Source: Patescibacteria group bacterium (GTDB taxonomy: Bacteria; Patescibacteriota; Patescibacteriia; UBA2591; JABMQE01). From it: 64,000 nt of DNA. A program made the position numbers and the translations under genes. The number at the start of each line of letters is the position of its first letter. The stretch's first letter is position 1. Of the stretch, positions 17,621-48,880 are shown in pieces. The notes under the pieces were generated by a model. That model saw only the letters and a list, made by a program, of their open reading frames with translations. It made no database searches and was not told the DNA's origin. The DNA is taken from positions 1,980 through 65,979 of the forward strand of contig JAHIMF010000041.1 in assembly GCA_018896645.1 (NCBI GenBank), in the 5' to 3' direction.

Positions 17621-18784
17621 TTATTTTAAGCACGATTGAAGGACTTTTTCTGTTGTTCGAGCTACGTATTGAGCATCCGAACCAGACATTTTAGGAGTGA
17701 GTGGCAAAGATATAGTAGCCTTTGAGACTTTCTCACTTACAGGAAAATCACCAATGTGATAGCTCAAATCTTTTTTATAGAATGGATGGAGATGAATAGC
17801 TTTATAATGAATTGCGGCACCGATGCCTTGCGTGTTAAGCTTTTCAATAATCTTATTTCTTGCAAATTTAAATTTTGATAGATCTAGAATGAGCACATAA
17901 AGATGCAAGGCGTGGCGGTTTTTTTGAATATCAGAAGGTCGGTATTGGAGCCTAAGATAGTCTAGTTTTGAAAATACATTGTCATAGATTTTGGCATAGG
18001 CCTCTCTTGTTTTGAGGAATTTATTGATTTTATTAAGTTGATGGAGGCCCAAAGAAGCTTGGATATCCGTCATGTTATATTTATAGCCGGGATAGATAAT
18101 TTCACTTAAGATTAATTTTTTACTCTCATATCTTTTCCAAGCATCAGTGCTTAAGCCATGCAATCTTAGTATTTTAATCTTTTCCGCTATTTTTTCATCA
18201 TTAGTAGTAATCATACCACCTTCACCCGTGGTTATATTTTTGTTTGCATAAAAGCTAAAGCATGTCAGGTTACCAAAACTACCAATTTTTTTTCCTTTAT
18301 ATTTGGCACCTACTGCATGAGCCGCATCTTCAATAATTATTAAATTGTATTTTTTAGCGATTTTTTTTATTTTATCCATATCGCAAGGCAGTCCTCCGAA
18401 ATGGACCGGAATAATCGCTTTAGTTTTTGGAGTAATTTTAGCCTCAATTAAATTCGGATTGATATTTAATGTCTTAAGTTCAATATCCGCGAGGATTGGT
18501 CTGGCGCCCACATGTTTAATGACATTTACTGTGGCGGCAAATGTTAGAGGAGTGGTGATTACCTCATCTCCCGGACCAATATTTGAAACTAACAGCCCAA
18601 GGTGAAGAGCGGCAGTGCAGGAGTTTACTGCCAATGCATATTTAGCTCCCACATATTTCGCAAAGTTTTTTTCAAACCTAAAACACTTCGGGCCGGTCCC
18701 TATCCAACCTGATTTTAAAGTGTCAACCACCTCATTAATTTCCTCGTCACCAATAAAAGGTGCGCCAAAAATTATTTTTTTCAT
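17621..18784 (-). CDS. DegT/DnrJ/EryC1/StrS-family PLP-dependent sugar aminotransferase (WecE-like)
   Basis: 387 aa ORF. 'IIEDAAHAVGAKYKGKKIGS' and the 'FSFYANKNITTGEGG' PLP-lysine region. Confidence 0.85.
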   Translation of the reverse strand: MKKIIFGAPFIGDEEINEVVDTLKSGWIGTGPKCFRFEKNFAKYVGAKYALAVNSCTAALHLGLLVSNIGPGDEVITTPLTFAATVNVIKHVGARPILADIELKTLNINPNLIEAKITPKTKAIIPVHFGGLPCDMDKIKKIAKKYNLIIIEDAAHAVGAKYKGKKIGSFGNLTCFSFYANKNITTGEGGMITTNDEKIAEKIKILRLHGLSTDAWKRYESKKLILSEIIYPGYKYNMTDIQASLGLHQLNKINKFLKTREAYAKIYDNVFSKLDYLRLQYRPSDIQKNRHALHLYVLILDLSKFKFARNKIIEKLNTQGIGAAIHYKAIHLHPFYKKDLSYHIGDFPVSEKVSKATISLPLTPKMSGSDAQYVARTTEKVLQSCLK

Positions 18785-18824: not shown

Positions 18825-19595
18825 CTAAAGCCAGAAATGATAAAAATTTTCTTTTTTTTCTAATCGGTATCCACATTTTTCATATAATCTGCAAGCTGCA
18901 GTGTTTGCTTCTTGAGTAATGACCTGTCCAAACTTATATTTATGAGAGATGAACCAGGATTGAGCAGACTTAACTAAAGATGTACCTAAACCCATTCCTC
19001 TCGCATTGGGGCTAACAGCAATTAAACCAATGTCTCCTCTATTATTTTTTTTGCCTAAGGTAATCATTCCAACAATTTTGCCTTTTTTTTTGGTAACTAG
19101 TACAGCATCTGCTATGGTTTTGTTCAGTGAATTGGTTATCCAAATTTTATACAGAGCCTCAAATTTTTTTTTGCTGATTTTCTGATCAACATTATATCTT
19201 GAGTAGAGACCGGCTTGGATTGCAAGATTTTTTAGTTCCGTATTTGGTAAGTTTTTATTGTGTTCCTCGACTTTGATATTTAATTGTAAATGTTTAACGG
19301 GTATTTTTTTTAGATTGATGATGTAGATTACTTTACGATCTGCAAGAAATCCGTTTAGGGTTTCTGCCGCTTTTTGAGAAGCCTCATCAGTACTATCAGA
19401 TGCCCAGTAGACTAAAGAAACCCTACTCTTCCTTAAACTTGTAAGGATTTTTTTCAGTGAATTTAAGTTTAGTTTATTAGGTATGATTTTTGCCACAGTA
19501 AACCCGAAAAAATCAGTGTCCCATTTAAGTATCTCCCATTCTGGATTTTGTTGATTTTTAATAGTAGTTTTTTTCAATTTTTTATGTGGGTTCAT
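18825..19595 (-). CDS. WecD-like dTDP-4-amino-4,6-dideoxy-sugar N-acetyltransferase (GNAT C-terminal domain)
   Basis: 256 aa ORF. N-terminal 'LKWDTDFFGF' parallels the 'LTWENAFFGV' of E. coli WecD. The C-terminal GNAT fold ends '...TAACRLYEKCGYRLEKKENFYHFWL', matching the WecD C-terminus. Confidence 0.6.
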   Translation of the reverse strand: MNPHKKLKKTTIKNQQNPEWEILKWDTDFFGFTVAKIIPNKLNLNSLKKILTSLRKSRVSLVYWASDSTDEASQKAAETLNGFLADRKVIYIINLKKIPVKHLQLNIKVEEHNKNLPNTELKNLAIQAGLYSRYNVDQKISKKKFEALYKIWITNSLNKTIADAVLVTKKKGKIVGMITLGKKNNRGDIGLIAVSPNARGMGLGTSLVKSAQSWFISHKYKFGQVITQEANTAACRLYEKCGYRLEKKENFYHFWL

Positions 19596-41023: not shown

Positions 41024-43537
41024 ATGCTAAATAAACTCATTTCTCAAATCCAACGCGACAAAAACTATACTTTCACCACTTTAGCGATTTTGTGCGTGGT
41101 TTTTTTGTGGTTTGTAATACAGGTGGTGTATCCGTCAACTTCTGGGGTTATTGGTTTTGGCGGGCGATTGGTTGCTTTTAGCGCCTTTTTATTTTATTGG
41201 TTTATTGGGGCTTCTTGGTTAGCAGGCATTTTTAAAAAGATTGTCAAATTTAGTAATGTTTGGTCATTTGTTTTTGGAATTTTCTTAATGCTTTATTTAA
41301 TTAGTTTTGTAATGGCATTTTGGATTGTGTTTTATAAGATAACGGTAGTGCTCATGGCGATGAGTTTGATGATTTTGATTTTGGGCATTTCTTTTTTATA
41401 TAGGAGAGTAACTAGTCACTCGTCATTCGACCCTGAGCTCATGACCGAAGGGTCACTAGTCACTGGGGATTCTTTTTCTCCAGAAGAATCTAAACAAGAA
41501 TTAGTGGTTACTAATAATACTTCTTTTGGGGATTCCTTAATCCTTGGCCACTGGGTTTGGCCGTCATTAGCAGTAGCCGCTATCATTGCCATCGGACTTC
41601 TATTCCTCGCTCGTACTGGCGACTATATGATTACCCCTTGGTCTGATGTGAGTCCTTTATATTTATACTTTTATGCCTTCATCTCTTTTATTATTTTTCT
41701 CTTGATTTTTTCTCGGACGCGGTTAAGAACCCTATTGATTATTATCATTCTTCATTCGTTTTTACTGCACTCTTATTTACCAATTGTTTATAAAACAGGT
41801 TTTGGCGGCGATAAGTGGCGGCATATTGCGGCCGAGAGATCGCTCCAAGCTGGAGAGGTTTATTCGCCGAGTTTGTTTGGCGAAGAAAAGCTGACGATGA
41901 GAAAGATTGGTCCGTTTTCAGTGCCCGAGGTTTTTATTGTTGGCAATAAAACCTCTTATGCTAATCAATGGGGTTTAACTATTGCTTTATCTTGGATATT
42001 AAATATTGATGTCTTTTGGATTGACCTTTTGCTTGTATTCGCCTTGTGGTCAATTTTTATTCCCTTATTTTTGATTAAAATCGGTTCTTTTTTTATCAAA
42101 GATAAAATATTTCTCGGACTGTTAACGTTTGTGCCTTCGCTTTTTTATCCTTTGCAGGTTTATGGCTCTATTACCATTCCCGTGGCGTTTGGTTTTTTGT
42201 ATTTTGTTTTTATGCTTGCTTTGTGGCTTTTATATTTGCATAAAAATGAATGGGATAAGCGATTTTTTGGGTTTTTATTGATATTAACGGCTTTGATGTA
42301 TTTTAATTATTTTATTTATTTTGTTCTAATACTGGAGATTGGGGCTATAATTTTTGTATTTAAAAAATATATATTACCGCGCCTCTTGCAGGGTCGCTCG
42401 CCTTCAAAAAAGTTTATATTTTACTTGTTGTTTTTGCTGGGATTTTGTGTTGTCTTTATTCCTGTTCTTGATAAACTAATTGGCCTATCTAATTTTGATG
42501 TGGGGGGCTTGATTCATTTTTGGAAAATCCCAAGACAGTTGGAAGAATTTTTTCTGGGTAAACTTTTGGGGTTGGGTGAATTTGTTCCTTTTCCAACATT
42601 TATTTCTCAAGGCAATTTTATATTTATGCAACTTTCCCGATATTCTTTATCCAGCACCACTTTTTTGAATTTTGTTTATTGGCAAAAATATATCAGCATT
42701 TTTTTATGGCTTTTGATTGTTTATGGAATGACCCGTATTGGCAAAGTCAAGGCTATGCGTGTAGCGACTCTTTGGCTTATTTTTATTTTTATCCTTTTAA
42801 CCAATCATTTTTTATCAATGTATTACATGGATGGGGTGCGGTTATTGACGAAACGTCTGGATTTAGTCATTGCGTTTTTTCTATTGCCCATGCTCGCGCT
42901 CGGAATTTACCGGATAGTTTTTCGAAACTCAAAAATTGTCAGTCATAATGCCAAAATTATTGCCCTGGGCTTGCTTTTGGTGGTTTCTTCAAGTGTTGCT
43001 TACGCTTCCGGGCCAAAATTGGAAGTAGTGACCGAGGATGAACTGGAAGCCGCGGAATATGTGTTTAAAGAAATTAAGAAATTAAGAAACAAGAAACAAG
43101 AAACTAGTGAACTAGAAATTGGGGACGATCCCAGCGACCAATTACTAATTAATAGTGACGAGGTTAATAATGTTAATAGAGTTAATAATAAATGGTATTA
43201 TTGTGTGTTGGCTAATACTTGGCCGCTTTTAGGATTAGAGGCAGTGTCTAATAGGCGTGTTGTAACCGGGGGCTTTCCGGTTTATACTGAATACGCGCAA
43301 CCGGAACGGGTGCAGCTTTGGAAAAAAATGATTAGCGAGCCCTCAATTCGGTACTTAGAAAAAAGCCTGGAGATTACCGGAGCTGATCATTGTTATTTTA
43401 TGATAGAGAAAAAATGGTTTGATGTTGAGGAAAAAAAGCAAGAGGAAAAATTGGAGCGGACTATAGAGATGCTGGGGAAGTATGAGAGGTTTGGGGAAGT
43501 GTATGTATTTTATTATGAGGGTGAGGACCACGAATAG
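41024..43537 (+). CDS. large polytopic membrane protein (about 20 TM helices; GT-C or polymerase-like) with an in-frame repeat insertion
   Basis: 837 aa ORF. Very hydrophobic up to ~aa 650, with an acidic C-terminal domain. No catalytic motif recognised. Confidence 0.45.
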   Translation: MLNKLISQIQRDKNYTFTTLAILCVVFLWFVIQVVYPSTSGVIGFGGRLVAFSAFLFYWFIGASWLAGIFKKIVKFSNVWSFVFGIFLMLYLISFVMAFWIVFYKITVVLMAMSLMILILGISFLYRRVTSHSSFDPELMTEGSLVTGDSFSPEESKQELVVTNNTSFGDSLILGHWVWPSLAVAAIIAIGLLFLARTGDYMITPWSDVSPLYLYFYAFISFIIFLLIFSRTRLRTLLIIIILHSFLLHSYLPIVYKTGFGGDKWRHIAAERSLQAGEVYSPSLFGEEKLTMRKIGPFSVPEVFIVGNKTSYANQWGLTIALSWILNIDVFWIDLLLVFALWSIFIPLFLIKIGSFFIKDKIFLGLLTFVPSLFYPLQVYGSITIPVAFGFLYFVFMLALWLLYLHKNEWDKRFFGFLLILTALMYFNYFIYFVLILEIGAIIFVFKKYILPRLLQGRSPSKKFIFYLLFLLGFCVVFIPVLDKLIGLSNFDVGGLIHFWKIPRQLEEFFLGKLLGLGEFVPFPTFISQGNFIFMQLSRYSLSSTTFLNFVYWQKYISIFLWLLIVYGMTRIGKVKAMRVATLWLIFIFILLTNHFLSMYYMDGVRLLTKRLDLVIAFFLLPMLALGIYRIVFRNSKIVSHNAKIIALGLLLVVSSSVAYASGPKLEVVTEDELEAAEYVFKEIKKLRNKKQETSELEIGDDPSDQLLINSDEVNNVNRVNNKWYYCVLANTWPLLGLEAVSNRRVVTGGFPVYTEYAQPERVQLWKKMISEPSIRYLEKSLEITGADHCYFMIEKKWFDVEEKKQEEKLERTIEMLGKYERFGEVYVFYYEGEDHE

Positions 43538-44298: not shown

Positions 44299-46344
44299 AT
44301 GAAACTTTTAATTACCGGCGGGGCCGGGTTTATCGGCTCCAATTTTATCCGTTATATTTTAAAAAAATATCCAGGTTATAAAATTATTAATCTGGATAAA
44401 TTAACTTATGCCGGGAACTTGGAGAATTTGCGTGACTTATCCGCCCCTGGCGGAGAGAATGATCCCAGATATAAATTTGTTAAAGGTGATATTTGTGATG
44501 AGAAAATTGTCAGTGAAGCGGCCAAGGATGTTGATGCAATAGTGAACTTTGCGGCAGAAAGCATTTCAGAAGAAACCTACTTACCGATTTGGAACAGAGG
44601 AAATATAGAAGTTACTACCCTGAAAGAACTGTTTGAGAAAGTTGTTCATCAAAATAAGACAAAGGTGGTGGTCCGAAAAGACAGAGAAATAATTAATTTT
44701 GCTCATAAAAATTATAAAGTTCTATCATATAAAGGTGGTATTGGCTATTGGATGCCAATTAAGCAAATGAGTAGACATAAGTATAAAGGCAAATTAATAA
44801 GACTGAGTCAAAAATGGGGAGAGATTACTGCCACACCCAATCATTCAATTTATGACTGTGATTTTAATTTGACCACCCCCCTTAAAAATCCAGAACTTTT
44901 AGGTTTAAGAAACATAAACCACATTTCCAAAAAAAAGAAATATCTGAATTTTTCAGGTAAAAAGTTAAAGGTCCTATTAAGAGTTTTGGGAGCCTACATT
45001 TCTGAAGGTTGGACAACATATAATAAAAGGAATGGGAGCTATCATTTTGGTATATCTAATACTGATGAAGAACAGATAGTATTGCTAAAAGATGATTTAT
45101 TATCGCTGGGTTATAGACCGAATATTACCAAAACAAAGGGTGGATTATTTCAGCTAATAATTAGTAATAAAGGTTTTTTTAATTTTGTTAGAAAAGAGGC
45201 GGGATTTAGATCAGCAGGTAAATTTATTCCCTCTTTTATTTTTCAGCTAGAGACTTCTCTACAACAAGAATTTTTGCGGCTGTTAGTGTGGGGAGATGGG
45301 CAAGAGATAGTAAATAAAAATTATAAAACCACAAGATATGTTACTAAATCTAAAAAATTAGCTACAGGGCTATCTTTATTGCTTTCTCTATTTCATTATA
45401 ATTATTCTGTAGGTTATGATAAAAGATTCAATGCTTACATCATTGTTTGGGGTAATGATTATACGATTTCATTAATAAATAAAGAATATACAGAAATACC
45501 TTACGACGGTTATGTTTATGATATTTCAGTAGATAATTTAAAAAACTTTGTTTGCGGAGTAGGGAATATAGTTGTTCATAATACGCATGTGGACCGCTCG
45601 CTTTACGAACCTGGTAGTTTTATTAAAACCGATGTTTATGGCACTTGGGTTTTGCTTGAGGTAGTGAAAAGGTTTAAGATTAAAAAATATTTGCAGGTCT
45701 CAACTGATGAAGTTTATGGTGATGTTTCTAGCCCCAATTTTTCAAAAGAGACGGACTTGTTGCACCCCTCGTCTCCTTATTCTGCTTCTAAGGCTGGCGG
45801 TGATATGCAGGTATTGGCAAGTCACCGAACTTTTGACTTACCGATTTTAATTACCAGAAGTTCTAATAATTATGGACCTTTCCAATATCCAGAAAAAATT
45901 GTACCTTTGTTTATAACGAATTGTCTGGAAAATAAGGAAGTGCCGGTTTATGACGGGGGAACGCAGATCAGGGATTGGTTGTATGTTGAGGATAATTGTA
46001 CGGGCATTGATACGGTATTACACAAAGGCGAGTTTGGCGAGATTTATAATATCGGCGCTAATCAAGAGCCGGAAATTACTAATTTGGAGTTGACCAAAAC
46101 AATATTAAAATTAACCGAGAAAGATGAATCTTTAATCAAACACGTTACTGGTCTTAGGCCTGGTCATGACCAACGTTATGCAGTGGACACTACAAAGATT
46201 CGTAAATTAGGATGGGAACCCAAAATGAGTTTTAAGGAGGGCATGAGTCAAACGGTTTATTGGTATGTTAAGAATCAGGATTGGTGGAAGAAGATAAAGA
46301 GCGGAGAATATCTTGAGTATTATAAGAAGCATTATCGCGAGTGA
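44299..46344 (+). CDS. rfbB: dTDP-glucose 4,6-dehydratase interrupted by an in-frame intein; 340 aa of extein plus a 341 aa intein
   Basis: N-extein 'MKLLITGGAGFIGSNFIRYILKKYPGYKIINLDKLTYAGNLENL...VNFAAE' and C-extein 'THVDRSLYEPGS...YVSTDEVYGD...YSASKAGGD' are collinear with RmlB throughout. Confidence 0.85.
   Translation: MKLLITGGAGFIGSNFIRYILKKYPGYKIINLDKLTYAGNLENLRDLSAPGGENDPRYKFVKGDICDEKIVSEAAKDVDAIVNFAAESISEETYLPIWNRGNIEVTTLKELFEKVVHQNKTKVVVRKDREIINFAHKNYKVLSYKGGIGYWMPIKQMSRHKYKGKLIRLSQKWGEITATPNHSIYDCDFNLTTPLKNPELLGLRNINHISKKKKYLNFSGKKLKVLLRVLGAYISEGWTTYNKRNGSYHFGISNTDEEQIVLLKDDLLSLGYRPNITKTKGGLFQLIISNKGFFNFVRKEAGFRSAGKFIPSFIFQLETSLQQEFLRLLVWGDGQEIVNKNYKTTRYVTKSKKLATGLSLLLSLFHYNYSVGYDKRFNAYIIVWGNDYTISLINKEYTEIPYDGYVYDISVDNLKNFVCGVGNIVVHNTHVDRSLYEPGSFIKTDVYGTWVLLEVVKRFKIKKYLQVSTDEVYGDVSSPNFSKETDLLHPSSPYSASKAGGDMQVLASHRTFDLPILITRSSNNYGPFQYPEKIVPLFITNCLENKEVPVYDGGTQIRDWLYVEDNCTGIDTVLHKGEFGEIYNIGANQEPEITNLELTKTILKLTEKDESLIKHVTGLRPGHDQRYAVDTTKIRKLGWEPKMSFKEGMSQTVYWYVKNQDWWKKIKSGEYLEYYKKHYRE
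44560..45582 (+). mobile_element. intein with LAGLIDADG homing-endonuclease domain inside rfbB
   Basis: Starts with Ser (S88, 'SISEETYL', block A). Block B 'TATPNHSIY' (TxxH). Two LAGLIDADG-like motifs 'LLRVLGAYISEGW' and 'FLRLLVWGDGQE'. Ends 'NIVVHN' followed by a +1 Thr. The insertion splits the conserved extein motif FAAES|HVDRS. Confidence 0.75.
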
Positions 46345-46390: not shown

Positions 46391-47098
46391 ATGTCAAAAC
46401 CAAAGATATACCCATCGGTTGTTACTTGGGGAGCGGATTGGAGACAGCAATTAAGAGATGTTAAAAAATTGAAATTAAGGGAGGCGACTGTTTTTTTGAC
46501 TGGAATTGACAAAGATGCACATCAAGAATTCTATAGATTTTTAAAAAATAGCGGGATTAAAAAAATACCTCATATTCATTTGCGGCATGATTTTGATGAG
46601 GACGAAATTAAAGACTTGACTAAAGAATATGGCGTAGATTATTTTACGATTCATTTTAAAACAGTTGAGCATTATTTGAATTGGAATAAAAGCTTGAAGG
46701 ATAAAATGTGTGTTGAATATAATGCTGATGAATGGGAAGGAGTAAAAATTAACGATTTTGAATTTATAAAAGAGATTGCCGGGGTTTGTGTTGATATTGG
46801 GCACTATGCCGCTGAAAATTTGTTGAATCGGTTTAATACCATCGAATTGTTTAAAAAAGTGATTGACACTTATCCCGTTGTAATAAATCATCTAAATGGC
46901 AAATATTTTGTTAAAAACAAAGATGGATGCGATGAAATAAAGCGAGGACATTTAGTGGTTGACATAAAAAAAGATTTTGAATATTTGGATGATGTGCCTA
47001 GAAAATTATTTACTAAAAATGTTTATCTTGAATTAAGGAATACGATACCGGAACAGATTGAGATAAGGGATTATTTGTATGGGAAATATTTTAAATAA
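46391..47098 (+). CDS. hypothetical protein between rfbB and the epimerase/reductase
   Basis: 235 aa ORF with no recognisable motif. Sits within the rhamnose gene set. Confidence 0.3.
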   Translation: MSKPKIYPSVVTWGADWRQQLRDVKKLKLREATVFLTGIDKDAHQEFYRFLKNSGIKKIPHIHLRHDFDEDEIKDLTKEYGVDYFTIHFKTVEHYLNWNKSLKDKMCVEYNADEWEGVKINDFEFIKEIAGVCVDIGHYAAENLLNRFNTIELFKKVIDTYPVVINHLNGKYFVKNKDGCDEIKRGHLVVDIKKDFEYLDDVPRKLFTKNVYLELRNTIPEQIEIRDYLYGKYFK

Positions 47099-47204: not shown

Positions 47205-48023
47205 ATGAAATACCTAATTTTCGGCAATGGCTATCTTGGCCAACAATTTCATAAATATTTTAAAGGCTCGGTGATGAGTGAGGTTTTTGTTAAGAAAGAG
47301 GAAGATGCTTTGCGTGAGATTGAGAAACATGAGCCGGAATGGGTGCTAAATTGCGCTGGGATAACTGGCCGGCCTAATATTGATTGGTGCGAAGATAATA
47401 AACAGGAGACATTTGAGGGCAATGTTTTATTACCCTTGATGATTGCTAAAGCTTGCAAAAAAGTTGGGGTTAAGATGTTGCATTTGGGCTCGGGCTGCGT
47501 ATATTCCGGCGATAATAATAGGAAGGGCTGGAGCGAAAAAGACGCGCCAAATTTTAGCGGCAGTTTTTATTCTAAAACCAAGGCCTTAAGCGAGGATATG
47601 TTAAAAGATTATAATGTTTTGCAATTGCGTTTGCGGATGCCAATTGATAATGATATTTCCAGTGAAAGAAACTTCATTAAAAAAATTACTGGTTATAAAA
47701 AAGTGATTGATATAAAAAATTCCATGACTATTGTTGATGATTTACTGCATGTTGCTGACACTTTGATGTCAAGAAATAAAACCGGAATTTATAATATGGT
47801 TAATCCCGGACCGATGAGCCATAGAGAAATTCTTGATTTGTATAAAGAGATGGTTGACTCAAAGTTTAATTACGATATTATTTCAGTTGATGAGTTGCAT
47901 AAAACGACTAAGGCGGAGAGGAGTAATTGTGTTTTAAATATGGAGAAATTAACGAAAGAAGTGGAGTTAAAGCCGTTGAAAGAGCGTTTGACTGAAATCT
48001 TTCAGAGAACACAGGAAAAGTAA
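47205..48023 (+). CDS. NRS/ER-type bifunctional NDP-4-keto-6-deoxyglucose 3,5-epimerase/4-reductase (eukaryote/giant-virus-like rhamnose synthase C-terminal-domain homolog)
   Basis: 272 aa ORF. 'NCAGITGRPNIDWCEDNKQETFEGNV', 'GSGCVYSGD', 'PNFSGSFYSKTKALSEDML...LQLRLRMPI', 'RNFIKKITGYKKVIDIKNSMTIVDDLL' and 'NPGPMSHREILDLYK' are collinear with Arabidopsis NRS/ER blocks (GRPNVDWCE, GSFYSKTKAMVEELL, LRVRMPI, RNFITKI..Y.KVVDIPNSMT, NPGVVSHNEILEMYK). Confidence 0.65.
   Translation: MKYLIFGNGYLGQQFHKYFKGSVMSEVFVKKEEDALREIEKHEPEWVLNCAGITGRPNIDWCEDNKQETFEGNVLLPLMIAKACKKVGVKMLHLGSGCVYSGDNNRKGWSEKDAPNFSGSFYSKTKALSEDMLKDYNVLQLRLRMPIDNDISSERNFIKKITGYKKVIDIKNSMTIVDDLLHVADTLMSRNKTGIYNMVNPGPMSHREILDLYKEMVDSKFNYDIISVDELHKTTKAERSNCVLNMEKLTKEVELKPLKERLTEIFQRTQEK

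Positions 48024-48157: not shown

Positions 48158-48880
<723 letters not shown>

Follow-up and report, generated by a model that had tools for sequence, protein, structure and literature searches.

A predicted class-1 homing intein within the dTDP-glucose 4,6-dehydratase RmlB of a Patescibacteria group bacterium, and its relatives at the same site of other extended short-chain dehydrogenases

Known intein hosts are mostly proteins of replication, recombination and repair, inteins are known to cluster in ATP-binding sites, and PI-SceI is the textbook homing intein. Here we describe a predicted intein that lies within rmlB, the gene encoding a dTDP-glucose 4,6-dehydratase, on a 64-kb stretch of contig JAHIMF010000041.1 from a Patescibacteria group bacterium (the whole stretch of 64,000 nt is hereafter called the window). 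Its best match by both sequence and fold is PI-PkoII, the DNA polymerase intein of Thermococcus kodakarensis (Protein Data Bank, PDB, entry 2cw7), with which it shares a three-part layout of an N-terminal splicing region, a two-motif LAGLIDADG endonuclease and a C-terminal splicing region. The archaeal PolB inteins found at the site YGD↓S...HN↓TDS (arrows mark junctions throughout) start with Ser and end with His-Asn followed by Thr, as the window intein does, but their host is an archaeal replication enzyme, PI-PkoII is 537 aa long with extra domains, and the identity is only ~17-28%. The TFIIB mini-inteins of Methanocaldococcus (5o9i, 5o9j) are homologous in both splicing halves, including the pattern GYxYDLxVxxxxNFxxGxGxxVxHN, but they lack an endonuclease domain and are hosted by a transcription factor. 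The VMA inteins (PI-SceI; TliVMA and PhoVMA: 7qsu, 7qss, 7qst) show the same Hint plus LAGLIDADG fold (TM 0.66-0.75), but they use Cys nucleophiles, their host is an ATPase, and they share 10-18% identity with the window intein.

The rmlB gene of the window is a single uninterrupted open reading frame (ORF) that runs through the N-extein, the intein and the C-extein, and the intein corresponds to residues 88-428 of this ORF, i.e., to exactly 341 codons (nt 44560-45582). The original prediction, made from the letters of the DNA, had proposed at this place of a 681-aa ORF a class-1 LAGLIDADG intein that splits the motif FAAE↓(S/T)HVDRS, and its coordinates and the motifs that it named are all present in the sequence. 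The G+C content is 30.8% in the intein and 39.0% in the exteins, and no further copy of the intein was found within the window. The features of the gene are listed below; the boundary between the Hint region and the endonuclease domain is approximate, since it was drawn from the secondary structure of the AlphaFold model of the intein.

44299..46344, + strand: rmlB precursor ORF, 681 aa and ~78.4 kDa, composed of N-extein, intein and C-extein (TIGR01181, 418 bits)
44299..44559, + strand: N-extein, 87 aa, Rossmann beta1-beta4 with GGAGFIGS, ending in AIVNFAAE
44560..45582, + strand: intein, 341 aa and ~39.5 kDa, assigned by family models, homology and fold matches
44560..44934, + strand: N-terminal splicing (Hint) region, intein residues 1-125 (TIGR01445 over ORF residues 100-185; PI-PkoII residues 2-100 aligned)
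44560-44562, + strand: Ser1, the first intein residue (Ser88 of the ORF)
44824-44853, + strand: block B, ITATPNHSIY, with TPNH (T179-P-N-H182 in ORF numbering)
44935..45459, + strand: LAGLIDADG homing-endonuclease domain, intein residues ~126-300 (Pfam LAGLIDADG_3; PI-PkoII endonuclease domain 277-423 aligned)
44983-45009, + strand: first LAGLIDADG motif, VLGAYISEG, with the acidic residue Glu236 (ORF numbering)
45220-45222, + strand: conserved Lys of the endonuclease domain (Lys221 in intein numbering)
45274-45300, + strand: second LAGLIDADG motif, LRLLVWGDG, with the acidic residue Asp333 (ORF numbering)
45460..45582, + strand: C-terminal splicing region (TIGR01443; third PI-PkoII segment)
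45502-45534, + strand: block F, YDGYVYDISVD, within the C-terminal splicing region
45547-45582, + strand: block G, FVCGVGNIVVHN, with His-Asn at its end
45583..46344, + strand: C-extein, 253 aa plus stop codon, beginning with the +1 Thr (45583-45585) of THVDRS
45697-45720, + strand: catalytic motif VSTDEVYG of the C-extein
45778-45792, + strand: catalytic motif YSASK of the C-extein

The N-terminal junction reads AIVNFAAE↓SISEETYLP and the C-terminal junction reads FVCGVGNIVVHN↓THVDRS, which is H427-N428↓T429 in ORF numbering. Four family models recognize the inserted sequence above their cut-offs: Pfam Intein_splicing (PF14890; 44.9 bits, cut-off 35.8) and LAGLIDADG_3 (PF14528; 30.2 bits, cut-off 22.5), and NCBIfam intein_Nterm (TIGR01445; 27 bits, cut-off 24.5) and intein_Cterm (TIGR01443; 22.6 bits, cut-off 15.6). 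The Hint-domain match on which the original prediction had staked its case is therefore there. A sequence search of solved structures matched PI-PkoII in three collinear segments (E 2.7e-16) that correspond to the N-terminal splicing, endonuclease and C-terminal splicing regions, with both LAGLIDADG motifs lining up with its endonuclease domain, and the TFIIB mini-inteins matched both splicing halves by sequence. The AlphaFold model of the intein, built on 17 relatives, has a mean predicted local distance difference test score (pLDDT) of 92.2, and among PDB structures Foldseek ranks inteins with an endonuclease highest, namely PI-PkoII, TliVMA, PhoVMA, PI-PfuI and PI-SceI. The middle domain matches I-DmoI (Foldseek TM ~0.68) as well as I-Tsp061I, and the alpha-beta-beta-alpha-beta-beta-alpha fold occurs twice in the endonuclease domain according to the secondary structure of the model and to Foldseek.

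Residue conservation, scored across 17 aligned inteins of the same site, points in the same direction. The splicing residues Ser1, Thr92 and His95 of block B, Val-Tyr-Asp319-321 of block F, His340 and Asn341 are invariant, and so are Glu149-Gly150 at the end of the first LAGLIDADG motif, Lys221 and, at the end of the second motif, Gly247, while Asp246 of the second motif is conserved in 16 of the 17. All the features expected in the sequence of a class-1 intein were found (both Hint halves, Ser1, TxxH, His-Asn, a +1 Thr and a host enzyme that is restored by excision), together with those of a two-motif monomeric LAGLIDADG endonuclease (the acidic residue at position 8 of both motifs, and the fold). 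Since every class-1 and LAGLIDADG feature that a sequence can reveal is present, the splicing mechanism is expected to be the textbook one. This set of intein residues would suffice for standard class-1 splicing, and the acidic residues predicted to bind the metal of the endonuclease are kept. We consider it highly probable that nt 44560-45582 encode a canonical class-1 homing intein inside RmlB, for which both protein splicing and DNA cleavage are predicted from these residues.

Two other kinds of Hint element were rejected. The class-3 inteins have a Trp-Cys-Thr triplet and no N-terminal nucleophile, whereas Ser1 is present here and blocks B and F are without the Trp or Cys of the triplet. 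The bacterial intein-like (BIL) and Hedgehog-type Hint domains have neither a His-Asn↓Ser/Thr/Cys junction nor an endonuclease and are not inserted at conserved sites of housekeeping enzymes, whereas a His-Asn↓Thr junction, an endonuclease and an insertion in a conserved motif are all found in the window.

Excision of the intein yields an RmlB of 340 aa that aligns without gaps across the junction with 6bi4 (E 3e-108) and 2hun (E 2e-103). The RmlB equivalog model TIGR01181, the alignment that the original prediction had proposed as a check, matches the ORF with 418.2 bits (cut-off 365.1), the match being interrupted at profile position 82/83 and so falling into two parts, and the protein becomes collinear with RmlB after excision. 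The Pfam GDP_Man_Dehyd and Epimerase domains are likewise each divided into two stretches by the insertion. The spliced enzyme keeps GGAGFIGS, VSTDEVYG and YSASK, i.e., the GxxGxxG, Thr-Asp-Glu and YxxxK signatures, and the family model and these motifs assign it to the dTDP-glucose 4,6-dehydratases.

Among the 120 RmlB homologues closest to the spliced enzyme, all have lengths of 311-362 aa and none carries an intein or anything else inserted; the best of them are 83-84% identical, and the organisms named among them belong to the Patescibacteria, Parcubacteria and Falkowbacteria, so that the window falls within the candidate phyla radiation. The other finding that the original prediction had considered as evidence against an intein, native residues spanning this region, is absent from these homologues. 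Their residue at the +1 position is Thr in 75 cases (71 of them exactly AAETHVDRS) and Ser in 44. The conserved motif is indeed rebuilt as FAAE-THVDRS, as had been anticipated, but the Thr that had been marked there as a deviation is native in these 75 homologues. The two closest intein-less homologues (P0157 and P0158; 84% identical) read VDAIVNFAAETHVDRSLYE(P/S)GSFIKTDVYGTWVLLE at the junction, and in this stretch P0157 does not differ from the ligated product that is predicted.

In the structural model of the precursor, the intein follows strand beta4 of the Rossmann fold (residues 80-83) and precedes the helix that comes next (438-458). This puts the insertion point, between Glu87 and Thr429, in the beta4-alpha4 loop of the NAD-binding domain of RmlB. 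In the short-chain dehydrogenases/reductases (SDRs), this loop generally belongs to the NAD-binding half of the enzyme and not to the substrate pocket, which qualifies the earlier placement of the site beside the substrate-binding region. The bare presence of an insertion, and nothing more, would also fit a lineage-specific domain that does not splice and is retained in the mature enzyme. Such a domain would interrupt the NAD-binding fold where beta4 is linked to alpha4, and it does not agree with Hint models above their cut-offs, invariant splicing residues and a fold that matches those of solved inteins. We regard this explanation as effectively refuted.

If the intein is functional, the 78-kDa precursor (computed mass 78.4 kDa) would splice itself in four steps: an N-to-O acyl shift at Ser1, the transfer of the ester to the hydroxyl of Thr+1, the cyclisation of Asn341 that would free the intein, and an O-to-N shift that would join FAAE-THVDRS. 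The products would be the native RmlB (computed mass 38.9 kDa) and the free intein/endonuclease (39.5 kDa). At the DNA level, the endonuclease would cleave intein-less alleles at the coding sequence of the conserved motif, roughly at AAYTTYGCNGCNGAR↓ACNCAYGTNGAY, and the repair of the break would copy the intein into the cut allele. The possible joined-extein target reconstructed for the window reads GCAATAGTGAACTTTGCGGCAGAA↓ACGCATGTGGACCGCTCGCTTTAC, and it resembles the empty site of the 84%-identical homologue, with several differences that are mostly synonymous.

The precursor model shows the Rossmann NAD-binding domain interrupted by the intein, and the unspliced protein is therefore presumed to be inactive. 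This would suit a conditional switch in which splicing in response to a cue gates the dTDP-4-keto-6-deoxyglucose available to the glycan locus, and other inteins have been proposed to splice conditionally (PMC4760082). We find a switch of this kind improbable. The sequence has no sign of a sensor, Ser1 and Thr+1 leave no cysteines for a redox trap (a Cys1/Cys+1 disulfide) at the junction, and the sporadic distribution of the intein, which is missing from the closest homologues, is more in keeping with a selfish element than with a regulator.

The distribution of the family was studied by an exhaustive HMMER search with the intein as query against 1.84 billion cluster representatives, which found 813 relatives, 35 of them with E <1e-30; a word-indexed protein search with the same query gave three matches only and strongly underestimates the family compared with HMMER. 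Extended SDRs are the hosts in 29 of the 150 best cluster representatives, and 28 of these rank within the top 38. All the readable junctions in these SDR hosts lie at the homologous site:

RmlB: FAAE↓S...HN↓(T/S)HVD(R/N)S
GDP-mannose 4,6-dehydratase (GMD): AQ↓S...HN↓SHVxxSF
RmlD: NCAAF↓S...HN↓TDVDGCE
Other SDRs: the homologous site with other flanking residues

Among the nearest relatives outside the SDRs, one intein (P0024) interrupts a HerA/DUF87-like ATPase and another (P0018) an ATP-dependent DNA ligase. Three other relatives (P0026, P0027 and P0036) have C-terminal junctions that are alike, HN↓(S/T)Q...AP(Q/S)D, and those of their hosts that were scanned gave no family match. All five come ahead of the archaeal PolB inteins.

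A species-level scan, with one genome per species, revealed at least 16 species-representative genomes that carry an intein at the identical RmlB site, FAAE↓S...HN↓THVD(R/N)S. The hosts are two Saccharibacteria, WWE3, one Patescibacteria bacterium, three Omnitrophota, four Rokubacteria, two Anaerolineae, Planctomycetia, Armatimonadota and one Nitrososphaeria archaeon. RmlB appears to be a new host family for inteins, in line with the original prediction, but the window intein is not a one-off, given these genomes and the paralogous SDRs. The two Saccharibacteria inteins are 58% and 56% identical to the window intein; they are the closest relatives in genomes, and the frames of their genes (L003:2557-4782 and L004:2539-4785) run on without a stop for ~60 codons upstream of GGAGFIG. 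When the window protein was looked for as an exact match among public assemblies, no record came up.

The source organism is uncultivated, and one of the relatives comes from a contig with an artefactual 5' end (L001, whose nt 1-21 are the reverse complement of nt 73-93), so it is fair to ask whether the window gene might be an assembly chimera or a frameshift artefact. The ORF is unbroken, the boundaries fall at exact codons, and more than 16 assemblies, made independently in different studies, show the same architecture and junctions, all of which makes an artefact scarcely credible. The same contig end explains the in-frame stop near the N-terminus of its intein (P0001), which we had considered as a split or degraded intein and then rejected as an assembler artefact.

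Same-site inteins are also present in six viral contigs of IMG/VR, in an RmlB-like protein in L088 (= P0012) and in GMD in L089-L091, L093 and L094. These contigs could be vehicles for the transfer of the intein between hosts; among GenBank phage records, there was no match to the intein. The IMG/VR contigs L088-L094 are predicted viral genomes that span 9.5-128 kb, and L092 carries a related intein in a different host protein.

Some GMD genes have two inteins each, namely those of L016:2671-5937 (Saccharibacteria), L091 and L002 (P0002), and three sites are occupied overall: AAQ↓SHV, which equals the RmlB site; YQA↓C of P0002, where the catalytic Ser/Thr motif lies; and FNHE↓C...HN↓SPRRGETF, in L016 (1089 aa) and L091 (1073 aa). 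There are also related inteins that end in ...SSN↓C, one in L080:1996-3837 (Bacterium HR35), whose host looks like a deoxycytidine deaminase by reading of the sequence, and one in P0003, whose host is an SDR epimerase with the intein at a different site; both add to the metabolic enzymes that are uncommon as intein hosts.

The relatives of the host gene and those of the intein do not coincide. The closest relatives of the host gene have no intein, and the closest relatives of the intein reside in far more distant rmlB genes. The inteins of the window and of P0001 are 68% identical and their C-exteins 56%, and the comparison with L003 gives 58% vs 47%. The same discordance is observed between phyla (L008 from Omnitrophota and L010 from Planctomycetia: intein 85%, exteins 58/47%) and between paralogues (another SDR, P0015, and the RmlB of L011: intein 65%, exteins 35/38%; the RmlD P0006 and the RmlB P0007: intein 54%, exteins 28/41%). 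In a neighbour-joining tree of the inteins (339 columns), those of SDRs come together in a single group when set against the polymerase inteins, and the window intein, P0001 and both copies from Saccharibacteria cluster with a bootstrap of 100. The inteins of RmlD and of another SDR are nested in a clade of RmlB inteins (bootstrap 92-98), and the GMD inteins, including the viral copies, constitute a separate group (bootstrap 75).

Presence and absence of the intein were also detected among very close relatives. One protein cluster at 90% identity contains both an intein-bearing RmlB (P0005, 700 aa) and an intein-less one (P0153, 321 aa). At the DNA level, their contigs (L084:4232-5368 and L087:4232) differ by exactly 1137 nt (379 codons) within the same gene neighbours and with flanks that are ~99% identical. 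At the insertion site, L087 reads GCAGAA↓AGTCAC and L084 reads GCAGAA↓AGT GTG...CAT AAT↓TCA CAC. The L084 intein has 33% G+C within a locus of 45% G+C, and both contigs belong to the same assembly set (ERZ272568xx). This polymorphism looks like a recent homing event or a precise loss.

Judging from these sequence comparisons and from the G+C content, which is lower in the intein than in its exteins, the intein family is one that moves horizontally among divergent alleles, paralogues and phyla. We tentatively propose, with a rough probability of 0.45, that it is an actively homing element whose shared landing site is the DNA encoding the beta4/alpha4 NAD-binding motif of extended SDRs, and that it jumps among alleles, paralogues and phyla and into archaea, with large viruses that bear such sugar genes as the likely vehicles. 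If this is true, the family would be an NAD-site counterpart to the inteins of ATP-binding sites.

Several points weigh against the overall interpretation as a splicing and homing intein. Splicing and DNA cleavage are predictions for all the members of the family; the precursor model has pLDDT <50 at both junctions (residues 85-91 and 429-440); and the deep nodes of the intein tree have only moderate support. The L084/L087 case concerns a relative that is 43% identical and not the copy of the window itself, and precise loss of the intein is another explanation for it. Moreover, no intein-less allele of the window gene was found, the nearest homologue without intein being 84% identical. This lack of an empty allele would also be expected if splicing has been kept while the endonuclease has lost its homing function, so that the element is inherited vertically with the rmlB lineage, and even the closest relatives of the intein share just 56-68% identity with it, which means that no very recent transfer is visible in the genome of the window. 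We consider such an immobilized intein possible but unlikely: both LAGLIDADG acidic residues and the Lys are intact in the window and kept in 16-17 of the 17 relatives, a pattern that is unexpected for a decaying endonuclease, and the relatives show both strain-level presence/absence and discordance between inteins and exteins.

The window is a segment of bacterial chromosome that contains a MurA-like gene and genes encoding a CTP synthase, an S41 peptidase, glycosyltransferases and an O-antigen-ligase-like protein, and the Rfam and tRNA scans of it found nothing. The genes that may be connected with the RmlB product are the following:

47205..48023, + strand: RmlD-like SDR, a weak match (Pfam RmlD_sub_bind 67 bits; TIGR01214 63 bits vs a cut-off of 224)
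48158..48880, + strand: RmlA-like glucose-1-phosphate thymidylyltransferase, short form (Pfam NTP_transferase 208 bits; TIGR01207 279 bits vs a cut-off of 361)
17621-18784 and 18825-19595, - strand: DegT/DnrJ/EryC1 aminotransferase (449 bits) and adjoining GNAT acetyltransferase

From the RmlB product, the DegT and GNAT pair could make a 4-amino-4,6-dideoxy sugar that is N-acetylated, and RmlC (PF00908) was not found among the ORFs scanned in the window. The original prediction had made splicing essential for the supply of rhamnose and Fuc4NAc precursors; the RmlA-like, weakly matching RmlD-like, DegT and GNAT genes agree with it, but no RmlC was found and the sugars are not established. The rmlB gene of the window could supply the branch-point precursor dTDP-4-keto-6-deoxyglucose only after splicing, and other genes of the window would need this compound. 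It is reasonable to suppose that splicing would gate the supply of dTDP-deoxysugars to the locus. Just upstream of the locus, an 837-aa ORF (41024-43537, + strand) has no Pfam match; its N-terminal two-thirds are hydrophobic by eye, and it is probably a multi-pass membrane protein. Between rmlB and the RmlD-like gene, a 235-aa ORF (46391-47098, + strand) has no Pfam or NCBIfam match.

The most interesting aspect of these results is that one intein lineage occupies one structural site across paralogues, phyla and viruses. A family of sugar-nucleotide enzymes of the cell envelope is added to the intein hosts, and the occupation of one site in several paralogous Rossmann-fold enzymes offers a natural system to study how homing endonucleases shift their targets. 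For annotation, where RmlB and GMD genes of ~660-1090 aa turn up in genomes of uncultivated bacteria and of viruses, an intein should be assumed and not a fusion or a novel domain. In addition, since there is no cysteine at the Ser1/Thr+1 splice junction, these inteins from mesophiles may serve as redox-insensitive splicing tools.

UDP-glucose dehydrogenase, which is also a Rossmann-fold enzyme, provides a parallel by kind of host. The InBase catalogue lists 'Ter Ndse' inteins in Trichodesmium. Inteins of UDP-glucose/GDP-mannose dehydrogenase (UDP-GlcDH) are described in archaea (Novikova et al., 2016; PMC4760082), and UDP-glucose dehydrogenase is the sole sugar-nucleotide host in the main text of that paper. 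These inteins likewise lie inside a nucleotide-sugar enzyme and not in a replication or repair protein, but, going by their description there, they differ from the window intein in that the dehydrogenase family is unrelated (COG1004), the hosts are Euryarchaeota only and the site is another one. In line with the original prediction, no RmlB or extended-SDR intein is described in the literature that was searched, the InBase and InterPro catalogues being outside its scope. The intein-bearing genes are already in public assemblies, where those with a name are called plainly dTDP-glucose 4,6-dehydratase. Compared with the known systems, and as far as the sequences tell, what appears to be new here is the host enzyme family and the insertion site, while the kind of element and its expected mechanism are already well known.

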